In this document: positions 1 to 31,878 of the stretch, piece by piece
Numbering within the stretch: the stretch's first letter is position 1
Layout: the number at the start of each line of letters is the position of its first letter
Origin: Erysipelotrichaceae bacterium
Lineage (GTDB): Bacteria; Bacillota_I; Bacilli_A; Erysipelotrichales; Erysipelotrichaceae
Direction: 5' to 3'
Assembly (NCBI GenBank): GCA_963663995.1
Contig: OY760660.1
Span: 1,916,505 to 1,948,504 of the forward strand
Length of the DNA stretch: 32,000 nucleotides
Translations under genes and position numbers: made by a program
The notes under the pieces: model-generated
Database searches by the model: none
The model's input: the letters and a program-made list of their open reading frames with translations, nothing else
Told to the model about the DNA's origin: nothing

Positions 1-3000
1 GTTCCTGCATTAGCAACTGGAGCTGTATTCAAGGCAGCTAGAGGAGTAGGTGTAGGAACGACTGTAACTGTAACTGGAGGTGTAGTAGGAGGAGTGGTTG
101 GAGGTGTAACTGGAGGAGCAGGAGGAGCAGTAACAGTAATCGTAACTGTAACTACATTAGAATCATCTTCACCATCATTGGCATGATAAGTAAAGGTATC
201 TGTTCCAACAAATCCAGCAGTAGGTGTATAAGTAAATGAACCATCAGCGCCTAATACTAAGGCACCATTGACAACATTAACATTTAGAACAGCTGTTAAT
301 GAATCACCTTCAACATCAGTATCATTAGCTAAGACACCAGCAGCAGCGATACTTAAGCTTGCAGTATTAACGACTGTATAAGCTTCAGCAACGGCTACAG
401 GGGCATCATTCACTGGAGTTACTGTAATATAAATTGTAGCAACTTCAGAAGTATCAACACCATCACTTACGGTGTAAGTGAATTGATCGTCCCCAACGTA
501 ATTAGCGTTAGGTGTATAAGTAATTGCTGATCCTGTTCCACTTAGAACACCATTGGTAGGAGCAGTTGTGAGGAATGTTAATTCATCTTCATCAACGTCT
601 TCACCAAAGAGGGTAATAAGAAGTGCTGTATCTTCAGGAGTTGTTAACTCTTGACCTTCAGCTACAGGAACATCATTGATAGGATTAACAGTGATTTCTA
701 CAGTTGCGCTAGCACTAATGTTTCCATCAGTAATGCTGTAATCGAAACTATCTAAACCATTGAAATTAGCAGCAGGTGTATAAGTGAAAGAACCATCAAT
801 ATTCATGGATACACTACCACCATTAACACTTGTTGCATCATATGCACTAATTTCTAATGCATCACCATCAACGTCTGAATCATTGTCTATGACTCCATTA
901 ACAGCCAATACAACCAGAGGCGTATCTTCATCAGTTGAATATTCATCATCAACAGCAACAGGAGCATCATTAATGTTTGTTACATTAATGGTAATCGTAG
1001 CTGCTACTGAACTTAGAACACCATCAAATGTTGTAAAGGTGAATGAATCTTGACCGACAAAATCAGTGTTTGGAGTATAAGTAATTTGATCATCATTTAG
1101 AATGCTTAAAGTACCATTTGTAGGTTGAGAAGCGATAGCGAATGTAATGCTATCCCCATCAATATCTGAACCAGTTAAGGTAATGAGTAAAGCTGTTTCT
1201 TCAGCTGTATCTACAGTTTGATCATTAGCAGTAGGAGCATCATTTATTGGGTTAACAGCGATTTCAACAATTGCTATATCCGTTAAACTACCATCACTAA
1301 CTGTGTATGTGAATGTATCACTATCTAATCCCACTCCATTAAAGTTTGCAGCAGGTGTATATGTAAATGTACCATCTAAAGCCATCGATACAGTACCACC
1401 GTTGGTTGTTGTAGTGTCATAAGCACTTACAAATAAACTATCACTATTAGCATCAGTGTCATTGGCTAGAACACTATTAGCAATAAGTACTGTTAATGGA
1501 GTATCTTCATCAGTAGTATATTCATCATCAACTGCAACTGGAGCAGTATTATTAACTGAAATATAAACAGTAGCTATGTTGGAGTTACTTGTTCCATCAT
1601 AAGCCATATATGTGAAATGGTCTGTACCATTGAAACCTGAATTTGAAGTATAAGTGAATGATCCATCAGCATTTAATGATAATGTACCATTTGAAACATT
1701 ATCAACTAATATAGCAGATAGAGAACTACCTTCAACATCAGTATCATTTCCTAAAATACCAGGAGCTGCTATTGATAGTTCAACAAGTTGAGCAGCAGTA
1801 TAATTATCATCTGTGGCAACAGGAGCATCATTGACTGCATTAATAGTAATATTGACAGTCGCTGTATCACTTCCACCATTTCCATCACTGATTGTATAAG
1901 TATAAGAATCAGTACCATTAAAATCAGAAGCAGGTGTAAAAGTAATTGTATTATCAGCATTAATTACTACTGTACCGTTTGATCCTTGTGTTACTGAAGA
2001 GATTGTTAAAACATCACCATCAATATCAGAATCATTAGCTAATACATTAGTTGTAACTGCAGTATCTTCATCAGTAAAATCTGAATCATCTACAGCAACA
2101 GGAGCATCGTTAATCGGTGTAACTGTAATGTTTACAGTACCAGTAACTGATGTTGTACCATCGCTTAATGTGTATGTAAATGAATCATTCCCATTAAAAT
2201 CATCAAAAGGTTCATAACTAAATGATCCGTCAGATCCTAAATAAGTTAGGTCACCATGACTTGGATTAGTACCAGCACTTATTGTTAAAGGATCACCATT
2301 TGGATCACTGTCATTAATTAATAAATGATTTACATCAGAATTTGTAACTTTTAATAATCCATCTTCGTCTACGGTATAAGTATCTGTGCCAGCCACAGGA
2401 CTGTTGTTTGTAACAAGAATAGTAACAGTTGCTTCATTAGAATCAGCAGTACCATCATTTGCTATATATTTGAAAGTAACAGTTCCGTCAAATCCCACTG
2501 AAGGAGTATAATCAAAAGAACCATTACTATTAAGTATTAATGTTCCATTTGCGGGATCACTTACTTTTGTCGATGTAAGTACTGTTCCTAAATCAACATC
2601 ACTATCATTTCCTAAAACACCACTTGCAACAATTGATAATGTTGTGTTTTTAACCAATGTGTAAGAATCATCAACAGCTACTGGTACATCATTTACAGGT
2701 GTTACTGTAATTGTGACAGTAGCAGTATTTGAATCGACATGTCCATCATTTGCTGTGTATGTAAAACTATCTGTTCCATTATAATTTGCGTTTGGTGTAT
2801 ATGTGAATGAACCATCAGCATTTAATGACAAACTACCATTAGTGGTATTGCTAACAAGAACCGCTGTTAAAGGGTCAACATCTCCACTTACATCATTAGC
2901 TAGAACACCTGGCATAGAAATTGTTAATGGAGTATCTTCAAGTGTTGCATACGTATCAGGATTAGCTATCGGAACTGTATTTATACGATAAACTGCTGAA

Positions 3001-3365
3001 ATACCAACGAATTTCACATTAGTATTTGCAGGTTGTTCATATATTACAACCTCGACAAAGAATCCCAAAAATACATAACCTGAATATTCAAGTGCTGTAA
3101 CTTCTGGGAAATTATCTCGAACGAAATTATCGGCATTTGATCCAACAGTTAGACCAGAACTTGTCCATAAAGTATCTAGTTCATTTAAATAATGATATTC
3201 ATAATTGCCATTTCCTTGACCATTATTTATTGAGTCATCAATACTAATATGAATTTCTAATGTTGGAGAATTTTGAGAAGCTAATATTGGTGTTATGTTC
3301 CAGGAACTAAACGTAAGTGTGAAAACCATTAAGATTTTCGAAATTCTAGTAATTGTTTTTATCAT
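1..3365 (-). CDS. Large secreted tandem-repeat surface protein (tandem-95 / cadherin-like Ig repeat adhesin), 3' end outside window
   Basis: Missing from the ORF track because it has no stop inside the window. The reverse strand reads AAGGAGGAcaatttt-ATG (ATG = complement of 3363-3365), then MIKTITRISKILMVFTLTFSSWNITPILASQ (signal-peptide-like) and a ~100-aa unique domain. Ten ~90-100-aa repeats follow (NDAPVAVDD.YTTDEDT.L.V...VLANDTD.DGD.L....T.NG.V....GSFTYTP..NFNG.DSFTYT..DG..S..ATV.I.V), then a Pro/Thr linker (TAPPAPPVTPPTTPPTTPPVTVTVVPTPTP, ~25-135). My hand translation found no in-frame stop down to position 3. Confidence 0.85.
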   Translation of the reverse strand, partial: MIKTITRISKILMVFTLTFSSWNITPILASQNSPTLEIHISIDDSINNGQGNGNYEYHYLNELDTLWTSSGLTVGSNADNFVRDNFPEVTALEYSGYVFLGFFVEVVIYEQPANTNVKFVGISAVYRINTVPIANPDTYATLEDTPLTISMPGVLANDVSGDVDPLTAVLVSNTTNGSLSLNADGSFTYTPNANYNGTDSFTYTANDGHVDSNTATVTITVTPVNDVPVAVDDSYTLVKNTTLSIVASGVLGNDSDVDLGTVLTSTKVSDPANGTLILNSNGSFDYTPSVGFDGTVTFKYIANDGTADSNEATVTILVTNNSPVAGTDTYTVDEDGLLKVTNSDVNHLLINDSDPNGDPLTISAGTNPSHGDLTYLGSDGSFSYEPFDDFNGNDSFTYTLSDGTTSVTGTVNITVTPINDAPVAVDDSDFTDEDTAVTTNVLANDSDIDGDVLTISSVTQGSNGTVVINADNTITFTPASDFNGTDSYTYTISDGNGGSDTATVNITINAVNDAPVATDDNYTAAQLVELSIAAPGILGNDTDVEGSSLSAILVDNVSNGTLSLNADGSFTYTSNSGFNGTDHFTYMAYDGTSNSNIATVYISVNNTAPVAVDDEYTTDEDTPLTVLIANSVLANDTDANSDSLFVSAYDTTTTNGGTVSMALDGTFTYTPAANFNGVGLDSDTFTYTVSDGSLTDIAIVEIAVNPINDAPTANDQTVDTAEETALLITLTGSDIDGDSITFAIASQPTNGTLSILNDDQITYTPNTDFVGQDSFTFTTFDGVLSSVAATITINVTNINDAPVAVDDEYSTDEDTPLVVLAVNGVIDNDSDVDGDALEISAYDATSVNGGSVSMNIDGSFTYTPAANFNGLDSFDYSITDGNISASATVEITVNPINDVPVAEGQELTTPEDTALLITLFGEDVDEDELTFLTTAPTNGVLSGTGSAITYTPNANYVGDDQFTYTVSDGVDTSEVATIYITVTPVNDAPVAVAEAYTVVNTASLSIAAAGVLANDTDVEGDSLTAVLNVNVVNGALVLGADGSFTYTPTAGFVGTDTFTYHANDGEDDSNVVTVTITVTAPPAPPVTPPTTPPTTPPVTVTVVPTPTPLAALNTAPVANAG
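140..2990 (-). repeat. Ten tandem coding repeats, period ~260-305 nt (~95 aa), diverged at DNA level
   Basis: The repeat junction motif (I/V)ND(A/V)P(V/T)A recurs on the minus strand near 2975, 2690, 2400, 2105, 1830, 1545, 1240, 965, 675 and 415, and the last repeat ends near 140. Two subtypes are visible: VDD.YTTDEDTPL.V, and A.DQ..T.E.TALLITL.G.D.D.D..TF (the repeats at ~965-1240 and ~415-675). Confidence 0.8.
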
Positions 3366-3383
3366 AAAATTGTCCTCCTTTTT

Positions 3384-3490
3384 GAAAATAAAATGACCGG
3401 TTTTCTGCTAAGTGCAGTTGACCGGTCATAGATTACTCTTTAGACGCCTAACTTTGTGCCCCAAGTTTTCACTTGGTTTACCTTTTGACA
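3384..3490 (-). promoter_or_regulatory. Proximal c-di-GMP-I (GEMM-I)-like riboswitch candidate with intrinsic terminator, directly upstream of the adhesin RBS
   Basis: Minus-strand RNA: UGUCAAAAGGUAAACC-AAGU-GAAA-ACUU-GGGGCACAAAGUUAGGCGUCUAAAG-AGUAAU-CUAUGACCGGUCAA, followed by the terminator AUGACCGGU(CAA CUGC ACUUA GCAG AAA)ACCGGUCAU-UUUAUUUU. Features are a GAAA-capped hairpin, a CUAAAG/CUAUGA tetraloop-receptor-like internal loop and GGUAAACC/CACAAAG junction strands, which resemble Vc2 GGCAAACC...ACGCAAAG. The 3' part of the aptamer is the 5' arm of the terminator. Confidence 0.55.
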
Positions 3491-3559
3491 AAGACGATTT
3501 ACTTTTTAATACCTTTTCTCAAATAATAATCTCCTTTAGAGGAATTAAGACATTCTTTT

Positions 3560-3668
3560 TTAATAAAAAATGACCAGTCCTCTGCTATGTGCAGTTGACC
3601 GGTCATAGATTACTCTTTAGACGCCTAACTTTGTGCCCCAAGCTTTCACTTGGTTTACCATTTTACAT
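3560..3668 (-). promoter_or_regulatory. Distal c-di-GMP-I (GEMM-I)-like riboswitch candidate with its own intrinsic terminator (tandem copy)
   Basis: Direct repeat of 3390-3490, offset by 177 nt. The differences preserve pairing: the tetraloop stem U-A becomes U.G (3467 t vs 3643 c), and a terminator stem G-C becomes G.U (3399 g vs 3576 a). Terminator: AUGACCGGU...ACUGGUCAU-UUUUUUAU. Confidence 0.55.
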
Positions 3669-3760
3669 ATTGGTGTTTACATGATACACGATATATGTTC
3701 TTATATCAATTTATCATTAATTTCTATGCATAAATACATTGATATATACTATGTACTTAA

Positions 3761-3788
3761 ATTATAGAACTTTAAAATTCTAAGTCAA
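3761..3788 (-). promoter_or_regulatory. Sigma-A-type promoter for the adhesin leader
   Basis: Minus strand TTGACT (3788-3783), 16-nt spacer, TATAAT (3766-3761). The predicted TSS near 3754 gives a ~390-nt leader. Confidence 0.5.
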
Positions 3789-3841
3789 TAATACTGCTCA
3801 TGAACTTTTTGTCACAAACATATTAGATTAATAAAAATCAA

Positions 3842-3868
3842 TAAAATAAAAAAGCCAATTGGCTTTCA
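3842..3868 (-). terminator. Rho-independent terminator downstream of tRNA-Trp
   Basis: Minus strand GAAAGCCAATTGGCTTTTTTATTTTAT: a palindromic GC-containing stem followed by a T-run. Confidence 0.7.
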
Positions 3869-3878
3869 AATCTAATAA

Positions 3879-3952
3879 TGGCAGGGGTAGTAGGAGTTGA
3901 ACCCACATTATTGGTTTTGGAGACCAGTGCTCTACCATTGAACTATACCCCT
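3879..3952 (-). tRNA. trnW: tRNA-Trp (anticodon CCA), CCA end encoded
   Basis: Minus strand AGGGGTA-TA-GTTC-AATGGTA-GAGC-A-CTGGT-CTCCAAA-ACCAA-TAAT-GTGGG-TTCAACT-CCTAC-TACCCCT-G-CCA. This is a 74-nt cloverleaf with U33, anticodon CCA, A37 and a TTCAA T-loop. Confidence 0.9.
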
Positions 3953-9905: not shown

Positions 9906-10913
9906 ATGAAAATTTGTTTATATTTTGAAGCAGAGAGAATCATATCTGGATCAGGCATTGGCAGGGCACAACTTCATCAAAAAGTCGCTTTAGAAAGTGC
10001 TGGTGTATCATACACATTAGATCCAAATGATGAATATGATTTACTGCATATAAATACAATCGGACCAATCTCGATGGCAACCATTGCTCAAGCAAGAAGA
10101 CGCGGTAAAGCCATTCTTTTTCATGCGCATTCAACTGAAGAAGATTTTAGAAATTCTTTTGTTTTCTCTAATCAAGTTGCACCCTTATTTAAAAAACATT
10201 TAATTTCAATGTATACACAAGCTGATGCGATTGTGACACCAACACCATACGCTAAAAAATTGCTTGAAGGATATGGGATTGATATTCCCATTACCGCAAT
10301 TAGTAACGGTATTGATTTAGATAAATACAAATATGATGAAGATAAAGCATATGCTTTTAGACGTTATTTTGGTTTAGAAAAAGACCAGAAAGTTGTGATT
10401 GGTGTTGGATTATATATTAAACGAAAAGGTATTCAAGACTTTCTTGATCTTGCGACCCATTTTCCTAATATTACCTTTATTTGGTTTGGACATTCATCGT
10501 CACTCACTATTCCAAGTGACTTAAAAACTAAAATTGAAAATCATGCACCGAATGTGATATTACCAGGTTATGTAAAAGGCGCAATAATAGAAGGTGCATA
10601 TATGGATAGTGATTTATTCTTCTTTCCTTCCTATGAAGAAACAGAAGGAATTGTTGTCTTAGAAGCTTTAGCTGCGAAATGTCCTGTTCTAGTTAGAGAT
10701 ATAGGCGTATATGAAGACTGGTTAGAAGATAATGTTAGCTGTTATAAAGGTGAAAATAATATTGATTTTATGACTAAGATTAAAGCTTTCTTCGCTCAAG
10801 ACTGTGTTGATACAAGAGAAAATGCGTATCAACTCGCACAAGAAAGAACTTTGGATAAAGTAGGACAAGAATTAAAGGCTTTATATATTAAAACTTTGGA
10901 GGAACATAAATGA
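9906..10913 (+). CDS. GT4 glycosyltransferase, diglycosyl-diacylglycerol synthase-like (alDGS/CpoA-like)
   Basis: 335 aa with the GT4 C-terminal EX7E-type region FFFPSYEETEGIVVLEALAAKCPVLVRD. Its size and its pairing with an MGS-like neighbour fit the glycolipid synthase pairs of Acholeplasma and streptococci. The ATGA stop/start overlaps the next gene. Confidence 0.7.
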   Translation: MKICLYFEAERIISGSGIGRAQLHQKVALESAGVSYTLDPNDEYDLLHINTIGPISMATIAQARRRGKAILFHAHSTEEDFRNSFVFSNQVAPLFKKHLISMYTQADAIVTPTPYAKKLLEGYGIDIPITAISNGIDLDKYKYDEDKAYAFRRYFGLEKDQKVVIGVGLYIKRKGIQDFLDLATHFPNITFIWFGHSSSLTIPSDLKTKIENHAPNVILPGYVKGAIIEGAYMDSDLFFFPSYEETEGIVVLEALAAKCPVLVRDIGVYEDWLEDNVSCYKGENNIDFMTKIKAFFAQDCVDTRENAYQLAQERTLDKVGQELKALYIKTLEEHK

Positions 10914-12886
10914 GAATCGGATTATTTAGTGACACTTATGCTCCAGAGATAAATGGTGTTGTTTCCTCGATTGTCACTCTTCAACAGGGATTAGAAGCTT
11001 TAGGTCATGAAGTATATATCATTACCACCAATAATTCTATTATGAAGTTATCCTATGAAGATCATGTTTTAAGATTGCCCGGCATTGAGCTTAAGAAAAT
11101 GTATGGCTATGTATTAAGTTCGCCTATTCATATTCGAGCTCAAAAAGTTGTTAAAGAAATGAACTTAGATATCATACATGCTCATACTGAATTTGGAATT
11201 GGTATCTTTGCCCGTATACTTTCACATCAACTCGTTTTGCCTTTAGTGATTACATATCACACAACCTATGAAGACTACACACATTATGTAAATGTTTTTA
11301 ATTCTAAACAATTTGAAAAGATTGCTCGTAAAACGGTATCTAAATTGTCACGAATTTATATTGATACATCAGATGCGATTATTTCACCTAGTGAGAAAAC
11401 AAAAGTAATGTTGGAAGGATATGGCGTAAAAAAAGATATTCACGTAATTCCTACAGGACTTGATTTAGATCGATTCAATCCAAAACATTCAAGTGCTGAA
11501 GATATCATGAATTTAAAGCGTGATTTAGGAATTAAGGAAAAAGAAAAAGTCATTCTTTATGTAGGCCGTGTTGCTAAAGAGAAATCAATTGATTTAATTT
11601 TAGATGGATTTGAGTCAATTAACTGTGATCAAATAAATTGTCATTTAGTTATTGTTGGAGATGGTCCTGAACTAGAGCAACTTAAGAAACATGCAAAAAA
11701 ATTGAAAACAGTCGATTGTATTCATTTTGTTGGCAAGAAAGCTAGTGTTGAAGTGCCTCTTTATTATCATATGTGTGATGTCTTTGTTTCAGCATCCTTA
11801 ACGGAAACGCAAGGGATGACCTTTGTTGAGTCCTTTGCTTCCCATACACCTGTCTTTGCCCGCGAAGATGATGTATTAAAAGAATTAATCAAAGAAAATG
11901 AAACGGGTTATTTCTTTGATAGTGCTAAAACACTTGCTCAAAAAATTGAAAATTACTTTTCATTAGATGAAAATAGTCAATTTGAAATTCAAGAAAAATC
12001 AGCCATCATGGCTCAGCCATATGAACGTGATGCCTTCATTGAAAAAGTTTTAAAGGTATATCAAAATGCCATTATGGATGTCAAAGAGTCAATGACTCTA
12101 GAATCAGTTGTTAGTGTTGATAGTGTGGTTGAATGTCATTTAGTTAATCGTAAGCGTGAACTAGATGTTGTTGTTTCAAAAGAACTCTTTGTTGAAGAAG
12201 GTTTAAGAAAGGGGAATCTTGTGACAAAAGAAACAATCGAAAGTTTGATGAAGAATGAGCAGTTTACAAAAGCTTATCAAAAATGCATACGTAAGCTAGC
12301 CAGTAAAGATCGATCGATAAAAGAAATGTATGATTTTCTCATTGAACAAAGTACTTTAAGTATTGCCCAAGTGAATAAATTGATTGATTATTTAGAAGAA
12401 AAGGGTTACCTAAATGACGAAGAATTAGCTCAATCAATGGTTAATTCTTATCGATCCCTTCTACAAGGACGCCATAAAGTTGTTCGTAATTTAAGGAAAA
12501 AAGGCATCCCACAAAAGCTCATTGATCAAGCCATGAATGAAGATGTCCTTGAAGATGAAGTAGAACATGCGATTGCCTGGGCTAATAAAGTTAAACCGAC
12601 TTTAAAAGACAAATCACTTAGAGAAGTTAAACAGAGTCTAAATCAACGAATGGTAACTCAAGGCTATGACTTCGATGTTATAGAATTAGTTATGAATTCT
12701 TTATCTTTTGCCGATGAAGAACAAGTTGAATTAGATAATTTAAGAAAAGCAGCAATCAAAGCGCGTAAGCGTTACAGTAGTAAACATAGTGGAACAGCTT
12801 TAAGAAATGCTATCTTTACCTACTTAGACCATAAAGGTTATGCTTTAGATGATATTTATGTTGTATTAAATGAAATGGAGTTTTAA
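10910..12886 (+). CDS. Fusion protein: GT4 monoglycosyl-diacylglycerol synthase-like domain (aa 1-~390) plus full-length RecX-like domain (aa 395-658)
   Basis: The N-terminus MRIGLFSDTYAPEINGVVSSIVTLQQGLEALGHEVYIIT and the region VSASLTETQGMTFVESFASHTPVFA indicate GT4. From the ATG at 12092 the sequence aligns with Firmicute RecX repeats recalled from memory (YLNDEELAQSMV, LRKKGIPQKLIDQAM, QRMVTQGYDFDVIELVM, YLDHKGYALDDIYVVLNE). No stop codon separates the two parts. Confidence 0.75.
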   Translation: MRIGLFSDTYAPEINGVVSSIVTLQQGLEALGHEVYIITTNNSIMKLSYEDHVLRLPGIELKKMYGYVLSSPIHIRAQKVVKEMNLDIIHAHTEFGIGIFARILSHQLVLPLVITYHTTYEDYTHYVNVFNSKQFEKIARKTVSKLSRIYIDTSDAIISPSEKTKVMLEGYGVKKDIHVIPTGLDLDRFNPKHSSAEDIMNLKRDLGIKEKEKVILYVGRVAKEKSIDLILDGFESINCDQINCHLVIVGDGPELEQLKKHAKKLKTVDCIHFVGKKASVEVPLYYHMCDVFVSASLTETQGMTFVESFASHTPVFAREDDVLKELIKENETGYFFDSAKTLAQKIENYFSLDENSQFEIQEKSAIMAQPYERDAFIEKVLKVYQNAIMDVKESMTLESVVSVDSVVECHLVNRKRELDVVVSKELFVEEGLRKGNLVTKETIESLMKNEQFTKAYQKCIRKLASKDRSIKEMYDFLIEQSTLSIAQVNKLIDYLEEKGYLNDEELAQSMVNSYRSLLQGRHKVVRNLRKKGIPQKLIDQAMNEDVLEDEVEHAIAWANKVKPTLKDKSLREVKQSLNQRMVTQGYDFDVIELVMNSLSFADEEQVELDNLRKAAIKARKRYSSKHSGTALRNAIFTYLDHKGYALDDIYVVLNEMEF

Positions 12887-12887
12887 G

Positions 12888-13829
12888 ATGGATCGTATTC
12901 AAATTAAAGATTTAGTAGAAGGTGAAAAAATTCAAACTAGCCTTTTAATAACACAATTAACCAAAGGAGTTACCACTTCAGGTGCCCCTTATGCCTCCTT
13001 TGTTTTAAGTGATAACACCGGAACAATAGATGGTAAGTTATGGGATATTAAAGAAGATCAACTTGCTAATATTGATGCTGGTAAAGTTGTCAATGTTAAT
13101 GCTGAAGTTCTCAAATATCGCAATGCTTTACAGCTGCGTTTATATTCATTAAGTGCTTTAGATCCTTCAGAGTTTGATGCTCAAGATTATGTTCGTGCGT
13201 CACATCTATCACAATTAGAAATGAAGAAACAAATCGGGCAAATTTTATCATCGATGAAAGATCCAATCTATCATGATATCTGTGTCGCGATTGTTTCAGA
13301 GTTTGAAGATCGTTTATATGTGTCACCTGCTGCTTCAAAGAATCATCATGAATTTGCCGGTGGTCTTGCGACACATATTATAGCGATGTGTGATTTAGCG
13401 GATGCAATCTGTAAACTATATCCAAAACTTAATCGTGATTTATTAATTGGTGGTGTACTCCTTCATGATATGGGTAAAACAATTGAATTGTCCGGTCCAA
13501 TTTTAACTGAATATACACTTGAAGGAAAATTGATTGGTCATATCTCAATAATGGAATCAAAGGTTTCAGAAATTGCAAAAACATTAAATGTCGGTGATAG
13601 TGAACAAGCGCTATTATTAAGACATTTAATTCTTTCTCATCACGGTCAACTTGAGTATGGTTCACCGGTTAAACCAATGGTTATGGAAGCAGAAATATTG
13701 AACTATGTTGATAATATTGATGCACGTATGAATATGTTTGATAAAGCTTTAGATAACGTGAATGATGGTGAATGGACAGGTCGTATATTTGCCCTTGAAA
13801 ATCGTTCCTTTTATAAGCCAAAGAAATAA
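12888..13829 (+). CDS. yhaM: 3'-5' exoribonuclease YhaM (OB-fold + HD domain)
   Basis: The N-terminal OB fold reads APYASFVLSDNTGTIDGKLWD, and the HD domain reads HHEFAGGLATH...LLHDMGK...SHHG. I prefer the ATG at 12888 (GGAG 8 nt upstream, just after the preceding stop) over the ORF-track start at 12870. Confidence 0.85.
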   Translation: MDRIQIKDLVEGEKIQTSLLITQLTKGVTTSGAPYASFVLSDNTGTIDGKLWDIKEDQLANIDAGKVVNVNAEVLKYRNALQLRLYSLSALDPSEFDAQDYVRASHLSQLEMKKQIGQILSSMKDPIYHDICVAIVSEFEDRLYVSPAASKNHHEFAGGLATHIIAMCDLADAICKLYPKLNRDLLIGGVLLHDMGKTIELSGPILTEYTLEGKLIGHISIMESKVSEIAKTLNVGDSEQALLLRHLILSHHGQLEYGSPVKPMVMEAEILNYVDNIDARMNMFDKALDNVNDGEWTGRIFALENRSFYKPKK

Positions 13830-13910: not shown

Positions 13911-14117
13911 ATGATCAAAACCTATCGAGTGGAAGGCATGTCATGCATGCACTGTGTGCACCACGTAAAAGAAGCACTCACAGAATTAGAAGGCGTAAAA
14001 GACGCTAAAGTTTCCTTAGAATCTAAAACTGCCGTTGTCGACTCAGAAAAAGAAATTGCTTTTGATACTATCAAAGCAGCTGTTGAAGAAGTCGGCTATG
14101 AAGTTTTCGAGAAATAA
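13911..14117 (+). CDS. copZ: Copper chaperone CopZ (HMA domain)
   Basis: 68 aa with the GMSCMHC metal-binding motif. RBS GGAGG. The stop overlaps the copA start. Confidence 0.9.
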   Translation: MIKTYRVEGMSCMHCVHHVKEALTELEGVKDAKVSLESKTAVVDSEKEIAFDTIKAAVEEVGYEVFEK

Positions 14118-16564
14118 TGGAAAAACAATTTAGAGTAAATGGGATGACGTGTGCTAGCTGTAGTGCTGCCGTCTCCCGTTCTCTTAAGAAAATTGAAGGT
14201 GTAGAAAAAGCTGATGTGAATTTAACCACAGAAAAAGTGTTGGTTGAGTTTGATCCAAAGATCAGTTTTGACACCTTGAAGTCAGCTGTTGAAAAAGCCG
14301 GCTATGGACTCGAGGAAATCAATAATCATCGCGAGATTGTCTTAGATGTTGAAGGTATGACTTGTGCGTCCTGTTCAGCTGCAATCGAGCGAAAATTAAG
14401 TAAACAAGAGGGTGTAGAAAAAATCCAAGTGAACTTGGCAACTAACACTGCATCTTTAAAATATGATCCTTCAAAAGTTAAATTATCTGAACTTGAGAAA
14501 GTGGTCGATAAAATTGGGTATCACATTAGTGAACAGGAAAAGAATAAAGATTTAAGTGAAGAAGAACGCAAAAAAATAGCTCACTATAAAGATATGACTT
14601 TCCGTCTAATCTTAGCCGTAAGTTTTGCAGTACCACTTCTTTATTTAACTTTTGGGCATATGGTGCCTTCTGTTAAAGTACCATTACCAGACTTTCTTAA
14701 TCATCATATGTATCCATTGAATTTTGCTTTAGCACAAGTAGTTCTATCAATCCCAATTTTATATGCGGGTCGTAAGTTCTTTAGTGTAGGATTTAAAACT
14801 TTGAAGAGTTTATCACCAAATATGGATAGTCTAGTTGCGATTGGGACAGGTTCTGCTTTTCTGTATGGATTATACGCAACGATCCAAATCGCTAGTGGAA
14901 AAGTTGAATGGGTTAACTCACTCTACTTTGAATCAGCTGGTGTGGTCATTACCTTAATATTACTTGGGAAATGGTTAGAAGAAAGATCTAAAGCTAAAAC
15001 ATCACAGGCGATTCAAAAATTAATGGAGTTATCACCAAAGACAGCTCATTTAGTTAAAGGTGATGAAGTCATTGATGTTCGTTTAGAAGAAATTTTACAC
15101 GATGATATTATTTTAGTTAAACCTGGTGAAAAGATTCCTGTTGATGGATTTGTTATAGACGGACTGTCATCTGTTGATGAAAGTTTAATCTCAGGTGAAT
15201 CACTACCAATTGAAAAAACAATCGATTCTAAAGTATTAGGTGGATCGATTAACACATATGGTTCCTTTAAATTTAAAGCGAGTGCTGTAGGTGAAGAAAC
15301 AGCTTTAGCTCAAATTATTAAGTTAGTAGAAGATGCGCAAGCTCAAAAAGCACCAATTGCTGCTTTAGCTGATAAAATCTCTGGTGTTTTTGTTCCAGTG
15401 GTTATGGTTATTGCCCTCATTAGTGCTGGAATTTGGTTTATGGTTGGCAAGGATTTCAATTTTGTTTTGAATATCTTTGTATCTATTTTAGTTATTGCTT
15501 GTCCATGTGCCTTAGGTTTAGCAACTCCAACTGCTATTTTGGTTGGTTCTGGTCGTGGAGCTGGTTTAGGAATCCTCTTTAAAGGCGGTGAAGCTTTAGA
15601 GAATACACAAGCCGTCGATACGATTCTATTAGATAAAACAGGTACTCTTACGGAAGGTAAGATGAGATTAACTGATCTAATTTCAAAAAACTTAGATGAT
15701 CAACTATTCCTACAACTTGTTGCTTCAGCTGAAGTAAATTCTGAGCATCCTATCGCAAAAGCAATTGTTAATGCAGCTAAAGAAAAAGACATTAAAATGA
15801 TTAAAACGGATTCCTTTGAAGCTGTTGCTGGTAAAGGTTTAAGTGCGAAAATTAATGGTCAAACTATCTTTATTGGTAATGATAAATTGATGCTAGAAAA
15901 TGATATCAAATTAGATTTAGAAGCTGATACTCTATCAAAGCAGGGTAAGACGGTCTTACATGTTGTGGTTGATAATCAATATGCTGGTTATATGGCTGTC
16001 GCTGATACACTAAAAGAAAATAGTGCGAAAGCAATTGCTGAATTAAAACGTTTAGGCTTACAAACCATTATGGTAACAGGTGATAATAAACAAACAGCTG
16101 AACATATTGCTGCACAACTGAATTTAGATAAAGTTTACGCAGAAGTATTACCACAAGATAAAGCTTCTGTAGTCGAAGAATTACAAGCTGCTGGTAGAAA
16201 TGTTGCCATGGTTGGTGATGGCATCAATGATGCGGTTGCCTTAACTTTAGCGAATGTTGGTATCGCGATTGGAACAGGCACAGATGTGGCGATGGAAAGT
16301 GCTGATGTAGTCTTGATGCATTCTGATGTCTTTGACATCGTTGATGCAATTCATCTGTCAAAAGCAACTCTTAGAAACATTAAGCAAAATTTATTCTGGG
16401 CTTTCATATATAATATTATTGGCATTCCATTTGCAGCAGGTATATTTTATGCTTTAGGTGGAGTATTATTGAACCCTGTTATTGCTGGAAGTGCAATGGC
16501 TATGAGTTCAGTTTCAGTGGTAAGTAATGCCTTAAGACTACGTACCTTAAAGTGGAGGAAATAA
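14117..16564 (+). CDS. copA: Copper-translocating P1B-type ATPase
   Basis: Two N-terminal HMA domains (GMTCASC twice), the TM CPC motif (ACPCALGLATP), DKTGTLT phosphorylation site and the GDGINDA hinge. Confidence 0.95.
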   Translation: MEKQFRVNGMTCASCSAAVSRSLKKIEGVEKADVNLTTEKVLVEFDPKISFDTLKSAVEKAGYGLEEINNHREIVLDVEGMTCASCSAAIERKLSKQEGVEKIQVNLATNTASLKYDPSKVKLSELEKVVDKIGYHISEQEKNKDLSEEERKKIAHYKDMTFRLILAVSFAVPLLYLTFGHMVPSVKVPLPDFLNHHMYPLNFALAQVVLSIPILYAGRKFFSVGFKTLKSLSPNMDSLVAIGTGSAFLYGLYATIQIASGKVEWVNSLYFESAGVVITLILLGKWLEERSKAKTSQAIQKLMELSPKTAHLVKGDEVIDVRLEEILHDDIILVKPGEKIPVDGFVIDGLSSVDESLISGESLPIEKTIDSKVLGGSINTYGSFKFKASAVGEETALAQIIKLVEDAQAQKAPIAALADKISGVFVPVVMVIALISAGIWFMVGKDFNFVLNIFVSILVIACPCALGLATPTAILVGSGRGAGLGILFKGGEALENTQAVDTILLDKTGTLTEGKMRLTDLISKNLDDQLFLQLVASAEVNSEHPIAKAIVNAAKEKDIKMIKTDSFEAVAGKGLSAKINGQTIFIGNDKLMLENDIKLDLEADTLSKQGKTVLHVVVDNQYAGYMAVADTLKENSAKAIAELKRLGLQTIMVTGDNKQTAEHIAAQLNLDKVYAEVLPQDKASVVEELQAAGRNVAMVGDGINDAVALTLANVGIAIGTGTDVAMESADVVLMHSDVFDIVDAIHLSKATLRNIKQNLFWAFIYNIIGIPFAAGIFYALGGVLLNPVIAGSAMAMSSVSVVSNALRLRTLKWRK

Positions 16565-16565
16565 G

Positions 16566-16844
16566 ATGAAACATACGCATCGAGATGATTCGATTCAGAA
16601 AGATTTAAATGTTCGTTTAAATCGTTTAGAAGGACAAATTCGAGGTATTAGAGGCATGCTTGAAAATGAAGCGTATTGTGATGATATCTTAGTTCAAGTC
16701 GCAGCGATAAAATCAGCCTTAGATGCGTTTGGTATGAAATTATTTGAAGACCATGTCCATCACTGTGTTGTTCGTGATATAAAAAATGATGACCCTGAGA
16801 TCATCGATGAATTATTCACTAGTATTAAACGTTTAAGCCGTTAA
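16566..16844 (+). CDS. csoR: Copper-sensing transcriptional repressor CsoR
   Basis: 92 aa CsoR/RcnR family protein: RLNRLEGQIRGIRGM, with Cys (YCDD) and His/Cys (HVHHC) ligand positions. Confidence 0.9.
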   Translation: MKHTHRDDSIQKDLNVRLNRLEGQIRGIRGMLENEAYCDDILVQVAAIKSALDAFGMKLFEDHVHHCVVRDIKNDDPEIIDELFTSIKRLSR

Positions 16845-29487: not shown

Positions 29488-31878
29488 ATGAAAGACCATA
29501 GTTCAATAGAAAAAAAGTGGCAAAAATTTTGGGAAGAGAATGAAACATTCAAATGTGATGTTTATGATTTCGATAAACCAAAAGCTTATATCTTAGATAT
29601 GTTTCCATACCCTAGTGGTAATGGACTACATGTAGGGCATCCAGAAGGGTATACCGCGACCGATGTCTTATCAAGAATGCGTCGTATGCAAGGCTATAAT
29701 GTTTTGCATCCAATGGGATGGGATGCGTTTGGTTTACCAGCTGAACAACATGCATTAAATACTGGTAATCATCCTGCAGAATTTACGAAGAAAAATATTC
29801 AAACTTTTAAAAACCAAATTAAGAGTTTAGGTTTATCTTATGATTGGTCAAAAGAATTTGCGACCACAGATCCAGATTATTACAAATGGACCCAATGGAT
29901 ATTCTTAAAACTTTATAATCAGGGCTTAGCATATGTGGATGAAATCCCTGTAAACTGGTGTCCTGAACTTGGGGCTGTTTTAGCCAATGAAGAAGTCATT
30001 GATGGAAAGAGTGAGCGAGGGAATTTCCCTGTTTATCGTGTTCCTATGCGTCAATGGGTTTTGCGTATTACTGAATATGCTGAAAGACTTCTAGAAGATC
30101 TAGAACTCGTTGATTGGCCAACTAGTACAAAAGAAATGCAAATCAACTGGATAGGTAAATCAGTTGGTGCAAATGTTAACTTTAAAGTTAAAGATCATAA
30201 TAAAGAATTCACAGTATTTACAACTCGTTGTGATACTTTATTTGGCGCAACATATTGTGTTTTATCACCTGAACATCCATTTGTTAAAGAGATTACGACA
30301 GCCGATAAAATATCTGAAGTTGAAGCTTATATCAAAGCAGTTTCTACTAAGTCTGATTTAGAAAGAACAGAACTTAACAAAGATAAAACGGGCGTCTTTA
30401 CTGGTGCTTATGCGATTAATCCAGTGAATCAAAAAGAAGTGCCTATTTGGATTTCTGATTATGTCTTAGTTTCTTATGGAACTGGGGCTATAATGGCCGT
30501 TCCTGCACATGATGAGCGAGACTATGAGTTTGCGAAAAAATTTGATTTAGAAATTATTCCTGTTTTGGATGGTGGAAATGTTGAACTTGAAGCTTTTGTA
30601 GGGGATGGATTACATATTAATTCAGATTTCTTAAATGGGTTAAATAAAGAAGATGGTATCGCAACCATGATTGAATGGTTGAAAAAAGAAGGTAAAGGTG
30701 AAGCGAAAACGTCTTATAAGCTTCGTGACTGGATTTTCTCTCGCCAACGTTATTGGGGAGAACCGATTCCTGTTATCTTAATGGAAGATGGGACCCAACG
30801 AACCGTTGATATTGATGAATTACCATTAGAATTACCACTTGTTGATAACTATAAACCAGCTGATACAGGTGAGTCACCACTTGCCAATGCAGGCTCGTGG
30901 TTAGATGTAGAAATTGATGGTGTTAAAGGTCACAGAGAAACCAATACCATGCCTCAATGGGCTGGAAGTTGTTGGTATTACTTGCGCTACTTAGATCCTA
31001 AAAATGATAAAGCAATTGCTGATCCAGAATTGATGAAACATTGGTTACCTGTTGATTTATATGTCGGTGGTGCAGAACATGCTGTGCTTCACTTACTTTA
31101 CTCTCGTTTCTGGCACAAGGTTTTATATGATTGCGGTGTAGTTCCAACAAAAGAACCATTTGGTAAACTCTTCCATCAAGGAATGATTCTGGGTGAAAAT
31201 GGTGAAAAAATGTCGAAGTCACGTGGTAATGTAATTAACCCTGATGATATTTTAGTTACCCATGGTGCAGATGCATTACGTGTCTATGAAATGTTTATGG
31301 GACCACTTGAAGCAACACTACCTTGGTCAAATTCTGGACTTGACGGAACACGTAAATGGATTGAAAGAGTTGAACGTGCCTTTGTTGAACAAGGAAAGCT
31401 TTCAGACACAAATGATCATTCCTTAGATAAGGTTTATCATGCGACCGTTAAGAAAGTTACTCATGATATTGAAACACTGAACTTTAATACAGCTGTCTCA
31501 CAAATGATGATCTTTATTAATGAGTGCTATAAAGTGGAAAGTATTTATAAAGAATATGCCTTAGGATTTGTTAAGATGTTTAACTGTTTTGCCCCTCATA
31601 TGGGTGAAGAGTTATGGTCAGTATTAACTGGCAAAGAAGGGATCACTTATGAACCTTGGCCAAGTTATGATGAGAAATTCTTGATTGAAGATGAAGTTGA
31701 AATGGTGTTCCAAGTCAATGGAAAAATCAAAGCTAAGGCAACCGTTGCCTTTGATGCAGATCAAGCTAGTGTTGAAGAAATTGCGAATAACATAGAAGCA
31801 ATGCAAACAGCATTAGAAGGTAAAACAATTCGAAAGATTATTCACGTTAAAAATAAATTAATTAACTATGTTGTATAA
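29488..31878 (+). CDS. leuS: Leucine--tRNA ligase
   Basis: 796 aa with the HIGH motif ([10 protein letters not shown]), KMSKS (KMSKSRGN) and a CP1 editing domain. RBS AAAGGAGAG. Confidence 0.97.

Follow-up and report, generated by a model that had tools for sequence, protein, structure and literature searches.

Two predicted class I cyclic di-GMP ON riboswitches in series, each with its own terminator, in the leader of a surface adhesin gene

Why should the gene for a single surface protein be preceded by two nearly identical copies of a regulatory RNA, and are both copies likely to work? The question is raised by the leader of a putative adhesin gene in a 32-kb stretch of contig OY760660.1 (hereafter the window; all coordinates are positions in it, and both the leader and the adhesin gene are read on the minus strand). 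Here we conclude that this leader very probably carries two complete, independently acting class I riboswitches for cyclic di-guanosine monophosphate (c-di-GMP) in series, both of them transcriptional ON switches. The identity of the aptamers, their binding-site residues, their mutually exclusive folds, and the conservation of the doublet before homologous adhesins were computed here; the identity and affinity of the ligand, actual termination, the transcription start site, and a digital response are what we infer.

Between positions 3800 and 3360 the minus strand holds, in this order, a promoter, an A/U-rich stretch of approximately 85 nucleotides (nt), unit 1, a spacer, unit 2, a ribosome-binding site (RBS), and the adhesin start codon, an ATG at 3365. 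The promoter is of the sigma-70 type (3761-3788, minus strand), with a -35 element TTGACT at 3788-3783, a 16-nt spacer, and a -10 element TATAAT at 3766-3761; it agrees with the consensus at 11 of 12 positions, is the best in the region, and would place the transcription start near 3754, approximately 85 nt upstream of aptamer 1. The two units appear as a direct repeat of 113 nt (3378-3490 and 3555-3667) with 91% identity and an offset of 177 nt, the one direct-repeat family reported by the repeat finder, and identity between the two aptamer cores is 97%. Motifs found in the leader are GGUAAACC, a hairpin CCAAGU-GAAA-(G/A)CUUGG, GGGGCACAAAG, and GUCUAAAG...CUAUGAC. An earlier reading, made from the letters of the sequence without database searches (the sequence-only reading), had described tandem repeats of approximately 100 nt with such motifs, a promoter, and an RBS on this strand, and all of these are present where it had placed them. 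The five or six differences between the copies preserve pairing, again as that reading had noted: the closing pair of the GAAA hairpin is U.G in one copy and U-A in the other, and a pair of the terminator stem is G.U in one and G-C in the other.

What the repeats encode was addressed with covariance models. When the whole window was scanned against the 4227 families of Rfam 15 at gathering thresholds, four matches were returned, comprising one tRNA-Trp, one T-box, and two c-di-GMP-I aptamers (RF01051). Aptamer 1 (3587-3669, minus strand) scores 62.0 bits (E = 5e-10) and aptamer 2 (3410-3492, minus strand) 61.6 bits (E = 6e-10). Both matches span model positions 1-87 of 87 and lie approximately 27 bits above the RF01051 gathering score of 35, which confirms the c-di-GMP-I (GEMM) identity that had been proposed from motif layout. 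A second covariance model, built from 22 related aptamers, matches only the same two sites in the window, with 86.4 bits for aptamer 1 and 86.5 bits for aptamer 2. At permissive Rfam thresholds, no other RNA family was found in the leader and spacer.

The residues that contact the ligand can be read from the RF01051 alignment, using the numbering of the Vibrio cholerae aptamer Vc2 taken from PMC3764141 and PMC4744006. At the G20 position both aptamers have G (3659 in aptamer 1 and 3482 in aptamer 2), the A47 equivalent is A (3632 and 3455, respectively), and the C92 equivalent is C (3591 and 3414). Both copies also retain G21-C46, A47-A49, and C44, the C of GGC, with its interhelical partner G83, which is bulged within CG, while the C22-G45 pair of Vc2 has become a compensated U-A pair. 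Helix P2 is a 6-bp hairpin with a GAAA tetraloop in both copies, and helix P3 carries the internal loop UCUAAA/UAUGA. This loop had been taken for the classic 11-nt tetraloop receptor; a receptor is indeed there, but in the form of a close variant and not of the exact motif, with A-U replacing the G.U closing pair and U-A replacing one C-G. The tetraloop-receptor and C44-G83 interhelical contacts would accordingly be expected in three dimensions, as judged from these residues, and in aptamer 1 a possible 5-bp P1 can be drawn between UAUGU and ACAUA. The equivalents of C44, G83, and C92 do not vary among the 22 related aptamers, and G occupies the G20 position in all but one (21/22).

The combination of G20, A47, and C92 is a c-di-GMP signature, and its presence in both copies fits c-di-GMP rather than the A20 subtype that senses 3',3'-cyclic GMP-AMP (cGAMP), in line with the preference for c-di-GMP that the retained G20 had suggested. 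It may still be asked whether genuine GEMM-I folds at this locus respond to cGAMP or to a variant ligand, given that Rfam keeps cGAMP-sensing GEMM-I members within RF01051 (PMC9481103), that a scan in permissive E-value mode displays copy 2 under the variant family RF03167 (c-di-GMP-I-GGC), and that one related aptamer, unit 2 of locus L093, has A at the G20 position. The RF03167 score of copy 2, however, is 53.2 bits and falls below that family's gathering score of 59, whereas its 61.6 bits for RF01051 far exceed the 35 of that family, so that the display is a clan-competition effect and not a reassignment. For copy 1 the best match is RF01051, the triplet at the binding site reads G/A/C, and A at position 20, by which the cGAMP-sensing GEMM-Ib subtype is recognized, is found in neither copy. 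A ligand other than c-di-GMP is therefore highly improbable for these units.

Each aptamer runs into an intrinsic terminator. Terminator 1 (3562-3606, minus strand) consists of AUGACCGGUC-AA-CUGC, the loop ACAUA, and GCAG-AG-GACUGGUCAU, followed by the U-run UUUUUUAUU; terminator 2 (3385-3429, minus strand) consists of AUGACCGGU-CAA-CUGC, the loop ACUUA, and GCAG-AAA-ACCGGUCAU, followed by the U-run UUUUAUUUU, and has a 9-bp outer stem; an inverted repeat of 3393-3408 with 3414-3429 was detected here. Neither was flagged by a simple terminator scanner, the stems containing internal loops, but both were confirmed by folding: taken alone, the hairpins reach -22.7 kcal/mol (z = -6.9) for terminator 1 and -19.7 kcal/mol (z = -6.5) for terminator 2 when compared with dinucleotide shuffles. 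Two complete units of aptamer plus terminator (3669-3562 and 3492-3385) are thereby laid out on one strand before a single downstream open reading frame (ORF).

The direction of the switch follows from the way in which the two structures overlap. The 5' arm of each terminator (AUGACCGGUC..CUGC in unit 1) is at the same time the 3' strand of aptamer helix P3 (GAC-CG-GUCAACU) together with G81 and the C92 equivalent, and the candidate P1 has its 3' strand in the loop of the terminator hairpin. Because this strand is shared, aptamer and terminator are mutually exclusive, and this in turn points to an ON switch, as had been deduced earlier from the overlap; the predicted folds agree. For unit 1 the Rfam aptamer fold is predicted at -14.6 kcal/mol, as against -30.4 kcal/mol for the terminator plus P2, and for unit 2 the corresponding values are -14.2 and -27.8 kcal/mol, so that by thermodynamic prediction the terminator is favoured over the ligand-free aptamer by 14-16 kcal/mol. 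For a transcript ending just before the terminator 3' arm, on the other hand, the minimum-energy fold is the aptamer in both units. In these models, an aptamer fold on the nascent RNA, combined with a more stable terminator in the full unit, marks an ON switch driven by kinetics, in which bound ligand has to keep the aptamer shut against invasion by the 3' arm of the terminator.

Two other modes of action have precedents, in that OFF switches exist among class I c-di-GMP riboswitches (e.g. Bc1; PMC11218506) and some members of the class act on translation. For the present units either mode is almost certainly wrong. The 3' strands of P3 and P1, together with the C92 equivalent, are all taken up in the 5' arm of the terminator, so that the terminator is incompatible with an aptamer stabilised by ligand, and an OFF switch would require an anti-terminator, of which none is seen. 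The RBS and start codon (3363-3380, minus strand; AAGGAGG at 3380-3374 and ATG at 3365-3363) lie outside both hairpins, and control would therefore be transcriptional. On every feature accessible to computation, the locus agrees with RF01051 and with the class of tandem ON switches.

Related loci were recovered by DNA-pattern scans of genome contigs, using a general pattern that returned at least 119 c-di-GMP-I aptamers from many phyla and yielded loci L049 and L093. Tandem RF01051 doublets scoring 61-63 bits per aptamer occur in these two Erysipelotrichaceae genome bins and in two metagenome contigs (L120 and L121). In all four, a terminator comes after each unit and overlaps it through the same sequence, ATGACCGGTCAAyTGC, and the doublet stands directly upstream of a homologous repeat adhesin, with amino acid identities to the window adhesin, over the repeat region, of 42-45% (L049, L120, and L121) and 34% (L093). 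A TTGACT -35 element also precedes the doublets of L121 and L093. Both units are intact in the relatives despite their divergence. The fold is further supported by covariation: in an alignment of 10 units from four lineages, 89.6% of cells are paired and 13 pairs are changed on both sides, values to be read with the small number of sequences, some of them closely related, in mind; none of 500 shuffles came as high, and sliding the partners by 1-3 columns left only 24-40% paired. Helix 1 (P1) is paired in 62.5% across the same alignment, being generally short and variable in this lineage.

Within a genome the two units resemble each other more than they resemble units of other genomes (identity of 0.97 in the window, 0.91 in L049, and 0.72 in L093), and the genes flanking the doublet-adhesin cassettes of the relatives are not syntenic with the window. 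Taken together, these observations point to a regulatory unit that has been duplicated or gene-converted repeatedly. As to frequency, approximately 15 of 119 sampled genome loci, each with at least one aptamer, contain a second aptamer no more than 400 nt away on the same strand, and the genes 3' of the sampled tandems encode secreted or surface proteins.

On this basis we propose the following course of events at the window locus. Transcription would probably start at the TTGACT-16-TATAAT promoter, and each aptamer would fold on leaving the polymerase. Binding of c-di-GMP would lock P1 and P3 and keep AUGACCGGUCAACUGC within the aptamer, and with this strand held, the complementary arm downstream could not build the terminator, allowing read-through. 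Without ligand, the more stable terminator hairpin with its U-run would displace the P3 3' strand, and transcription would stop. Full-length adhesin mRNA would need read-through at both checkpoints, of which the second would cut the basal leak and make the response to c-di-GMP sharper, with adhesin made only at high c-di-GMP, in the sessile, attached state.

Several points weigh against this proposal. In the register of unit 1, the P1 of unit 2 contains two U.U mismatches, for which reason its affinity or switching efficiency may differ from that of unit 1. A second promoter-like site (3709-3681, minus strand) makes the true transcription start uncertain. The proposal also assumes c-di-GMP signalling in the host genome, and no GGDEF, EAL, or HD-GYP gene was found in the 32-kb window, a result that says little on the genome as a whole; the HD protein at 12870-13829 is of an HD plus OB-fold type and not HD-GYP. 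Finally, the very likeness of the two units noted above suggests a recent duplication or gene conversion, perhaps unscreened by selection.

This last point, together with the want of a good P1 in unit 2, would suit a simpler arrangement in which only one unit works and the other is a recent and maybe decaying duplicate, acting as a constitutive partial terminator or being neutral, leaving no two-checkpoint logic. We regard such an arrangement as decidedly improbable. The copies score equally against RF01051, keep all binding-site residues, and differ in ways that preserve pairing, and a poor P1 is of limited weight in a lineage where this helix is short and variable. Moreover, the doublets of relatives have diverged to 91% and 72% identity between their units and still score 61-63 bits per unit, and doublets that have diverged yet remain high-scoring argue for selection on both units. 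It is likewise unlikely, if somewhat less so, that both units work and yet are not simple independent checkpoints, owing to cross-talk through the terminator arms, a two-threshold response, or both. A self-complementary ACCGGU core is present in both arms of both terminators, with 73% complementarity between the arms at 3393-3429 and 3570-3606; once ligand had let the polymerase through unit 1, the 3' arm left over from terminator 1 could base-pair with the 5' arm of terminator 2 and so link both decisions. In a two-threshold variant, the weakened P1 may set unit 2 apart in affinity or in kinetic window, and the response would then have two thresholds instead of being just steeper.

Two independent ON switches in series would be in keeping with systems already described. 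Sherlock et al. (2022, PMC9481103) catalogued 347 tandem c-di-GMP-I doublets and 12 triplets, the commonest same-class tandem, and termed such arrangements 'pseudo-cooperative', with multiple expression platforms; like the window, these doublets consist of two same-class aptamers, each with its own expression platform. A close parallel in layout is the Bc3-5 triple tandem of Bacillus thuringiensis CT-43, which lies upstream of cspABCDE, genes annotated as encoding cell-surface proteins, and in which experiments comparing doublets and the triplet with single units showed the background falling and the response becoming more digital with every unit added (Zhou et al. 2016, PMC4759541). As in Bc3-5, complete and highly similar class I aptamers follow one another in the window, each with an intrinsic terminator and ON logic; the 5' arm of the terminator shares sequence with the C92-equivalent residue, the 3' strand of P1, and part of P3, and the downstream product is a cell-surface protein. 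Unlike Bc3-5, the window tandem has two units instead of three, precedes a single adhesin with Big_9/cadherin repeats instead of a five-gene operon, and belongs to a different low-GC lineage, most closely related to Erysipelotrichaceae genome bins. By analogy, the more digital response that the sequence-only reading expected of two complete units matches this published work (PMC4759541, PMC9481103).

Control of an adhesin by this class has a precedent in Bc2, shown by Tang et al. (2016, PMC4933901) to be an ON switch for cap, the collagen adhesion protein gene that follows it in B. thuringiensis BMB171. Like the window units as predicted here, Bc2 belongs to class I, and c-di-GMP turns on the adhesin gene behind it by relieving termination, so that adhesin is made at high c-di-GMP; unlike them, it is a single unit, and the adhesin is of another family. 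With Vc2, the structural reference, the window copies share G20, A47, C92, C44-G83, and the GAAA tetraloop with its P3 receptor; they differ in having U-A for C22-G45, G for A43, a receptor closed by A-U, a P3 capped by a short GA-GUAA-UC hairpin, and an intrinsic terminator as expression platform. Welz and Breaker are reported to have found, in 2007, that the tandem thiamine pyrophosphate (TPP) riboswitches of Bacillus anthracis are two complete and independent switches giving a steeper response. These resemble the window in placing two same-ligand riboswitches in series and differ in their ligand and in being OFF switches; the same 2007 study is cited as the source of dose-response equations in the Bc3-5 work (PMC4759541). 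From Paraclostridium and relatives, c-di-GMP-II riboswitches are on record in tandem before genes for surface-anchor proteins (COG4932; PMC9481103); as in the window, c-di-GMP riboswitches stand in series before a surface protein in low-GC Gram-positives, while class II has an unrelated fold.

Earlier publications thus cover the class of riboswitch, its tandem arrangement, the ON logic, and the association with surface proteins, and the understanding of riboswitches is unchanged by this locus. Its value lies in being a clean, well-conserved case of predicted c-di-GMP-dependent, two-checkpoint adhesin control in a poorly studied low-GC lineage near Erysipelotrichaceae bins. It leads to the prediction that attachment in these bacteria turns on sharply at high c-di-GMP, and the near-identical pair of units offers a convenient natural system in which to measure how far a second unit sharpens the response.

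The regulated gene (1-3365, minus strand) encodes a putative secreted surface protein, and its ORF is still open at the window edge after 1121 codons. By inspection the N-terminus resembles a signal peptide (MIKTITRISKILMVFTLTFSSWNITPILA/SQ), and Pfam Big_9 matches 10 stretches (E = 1e-208), which form 10 Big_9/Cadherin_4/Cadherin_5 repeats that are followed by a Pro/Thr-rich linker. For residues 1-139 (3000-3365, minus strand), which include an N-terminal region of approximately 100 residues, no homologue was detectable in a collection of 5.8 billion proteins; this N-terminal region is probably the ligand-binding tip. The N-termini of the relatives' adhesins resemble one another (..DKF.V......NW..) and not that of the window. 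'Adhesin' is a reasonable reading of a signal peptide with repeat domains, and that part of the earlier description, a 'giant adhesin', holds; 'giant' is unproven, as the ORF leaves the window where it does. The homologous adhesins measure approximately 1390 and 1719 residues where complete, and at least 1372 in one that is cut off by the end of its locus.

A number of further observations concern tandem riboswitches in the sampled genomes. An adenine at position 20 is the hallmark of the cGAMP-sensing GEMM-Ib subtype. In L093, unit 2 (3751-3835, plus strand) has A at the G20 position (AAAAAGUAAACC) and the upstream aptamer has G; this doublet could be a natural c-di-GMP AND cGAMP gate before an adhesin. 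In L020 (4570-4751, plus strand) and L051 (2286-2473, plus strand), two c-di-GMP-I aptamers adjoin directly, their starts 94-100 nt apart, with no room for a terminator between them, and lie upstream of subtilisin-like secreted proteases (GHGTH[VI]AG motif). This is a different tandem architecture, possibly a dual aptamer served by one platform. In the Bacillota bins L009, L110, L119, and L054, a conserved family of small secreted proteins (155-159 residues, ...VRVQSNANWAL.V...) is encoded directly 3' of tandem c-di-GMP-I riboswitches, and the upstream unit of L009 is of the RF03167 GGC variant.

Other features were noted in and around the adhesin leader. The second promoter-like site at 3709-3681 (minus strand) reads TTGATA-17-TATCAT, and a start from it would lie at about 3674, shortly before aptamer 1. 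Between the main promoter and aptamer 1 lies an inverted repeat (3702-3714 and 3734-3746), a 13-nt palindrome TATATCAATGTAT / ATAAATTGATATA with 92% complementarity and a 19-nt gap, which overlaps the -35 element of that second site. It could be the operator of a protein regulator, a stabilising 5' hairpin, or a chance occurrence in A/T-rich DNA. The upstream boundary of the leader (3850-3952, minus strand) is made up of a tRNA-Trp gene (3952-3879) and a terminator-like hairpin (3867-3850), which separate the adhesin promoter from upstream transcription; the tRNA-Trp (anticodon CCA) stands alone directly upstream of the adhesin promoter and has a promoter-like site of its own at 3995-3967 with an extended TG.

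In the spacer between the units (3537-3499, minus strand), a Shine-Dalgarno-like AAAGGAG is followed, at a spacing of 8 nt, by a 7-codon mini-ORF starting with TTG (LRKGIKK*), and apart from it no ORF with a plausible start lies between the two units. A functional leader peptide was considered here and rejected, since the spacers of L121 and L093 hold no counterpart preceded by a Shine-Dalgarno sequence; the mini-ORF is probably fortuitous, or a leftover of a duplication that took in the RBS.

Elsewhere in the window, the T-box leader (RF00230; 29249-29449, plus strand; 116.9 bits) precedes a leucyl-tRNA synthetase ORF (29488-31878, with the Pfam tRNA-synt_1_2 editing domain) and is ordinary, as is a cop-like pair at 14117-16844 (plus strand) comprising a copper-type P1B ATPase with two HMA domains and a metal-sensing repressor of the CsoR family. 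The window also encodes GDPD, NifU-like, and SufC-like proteins. At 10910-12886 (plus strand), a single ORF of 658 residues joins an N-terminal GT4/GT1 glycosyltransferase to C-terminal RecX three-helix domains (HTH1-3), and is either an unusual fusion or an artefact of ORF calling or sequencing that has run two genes together.

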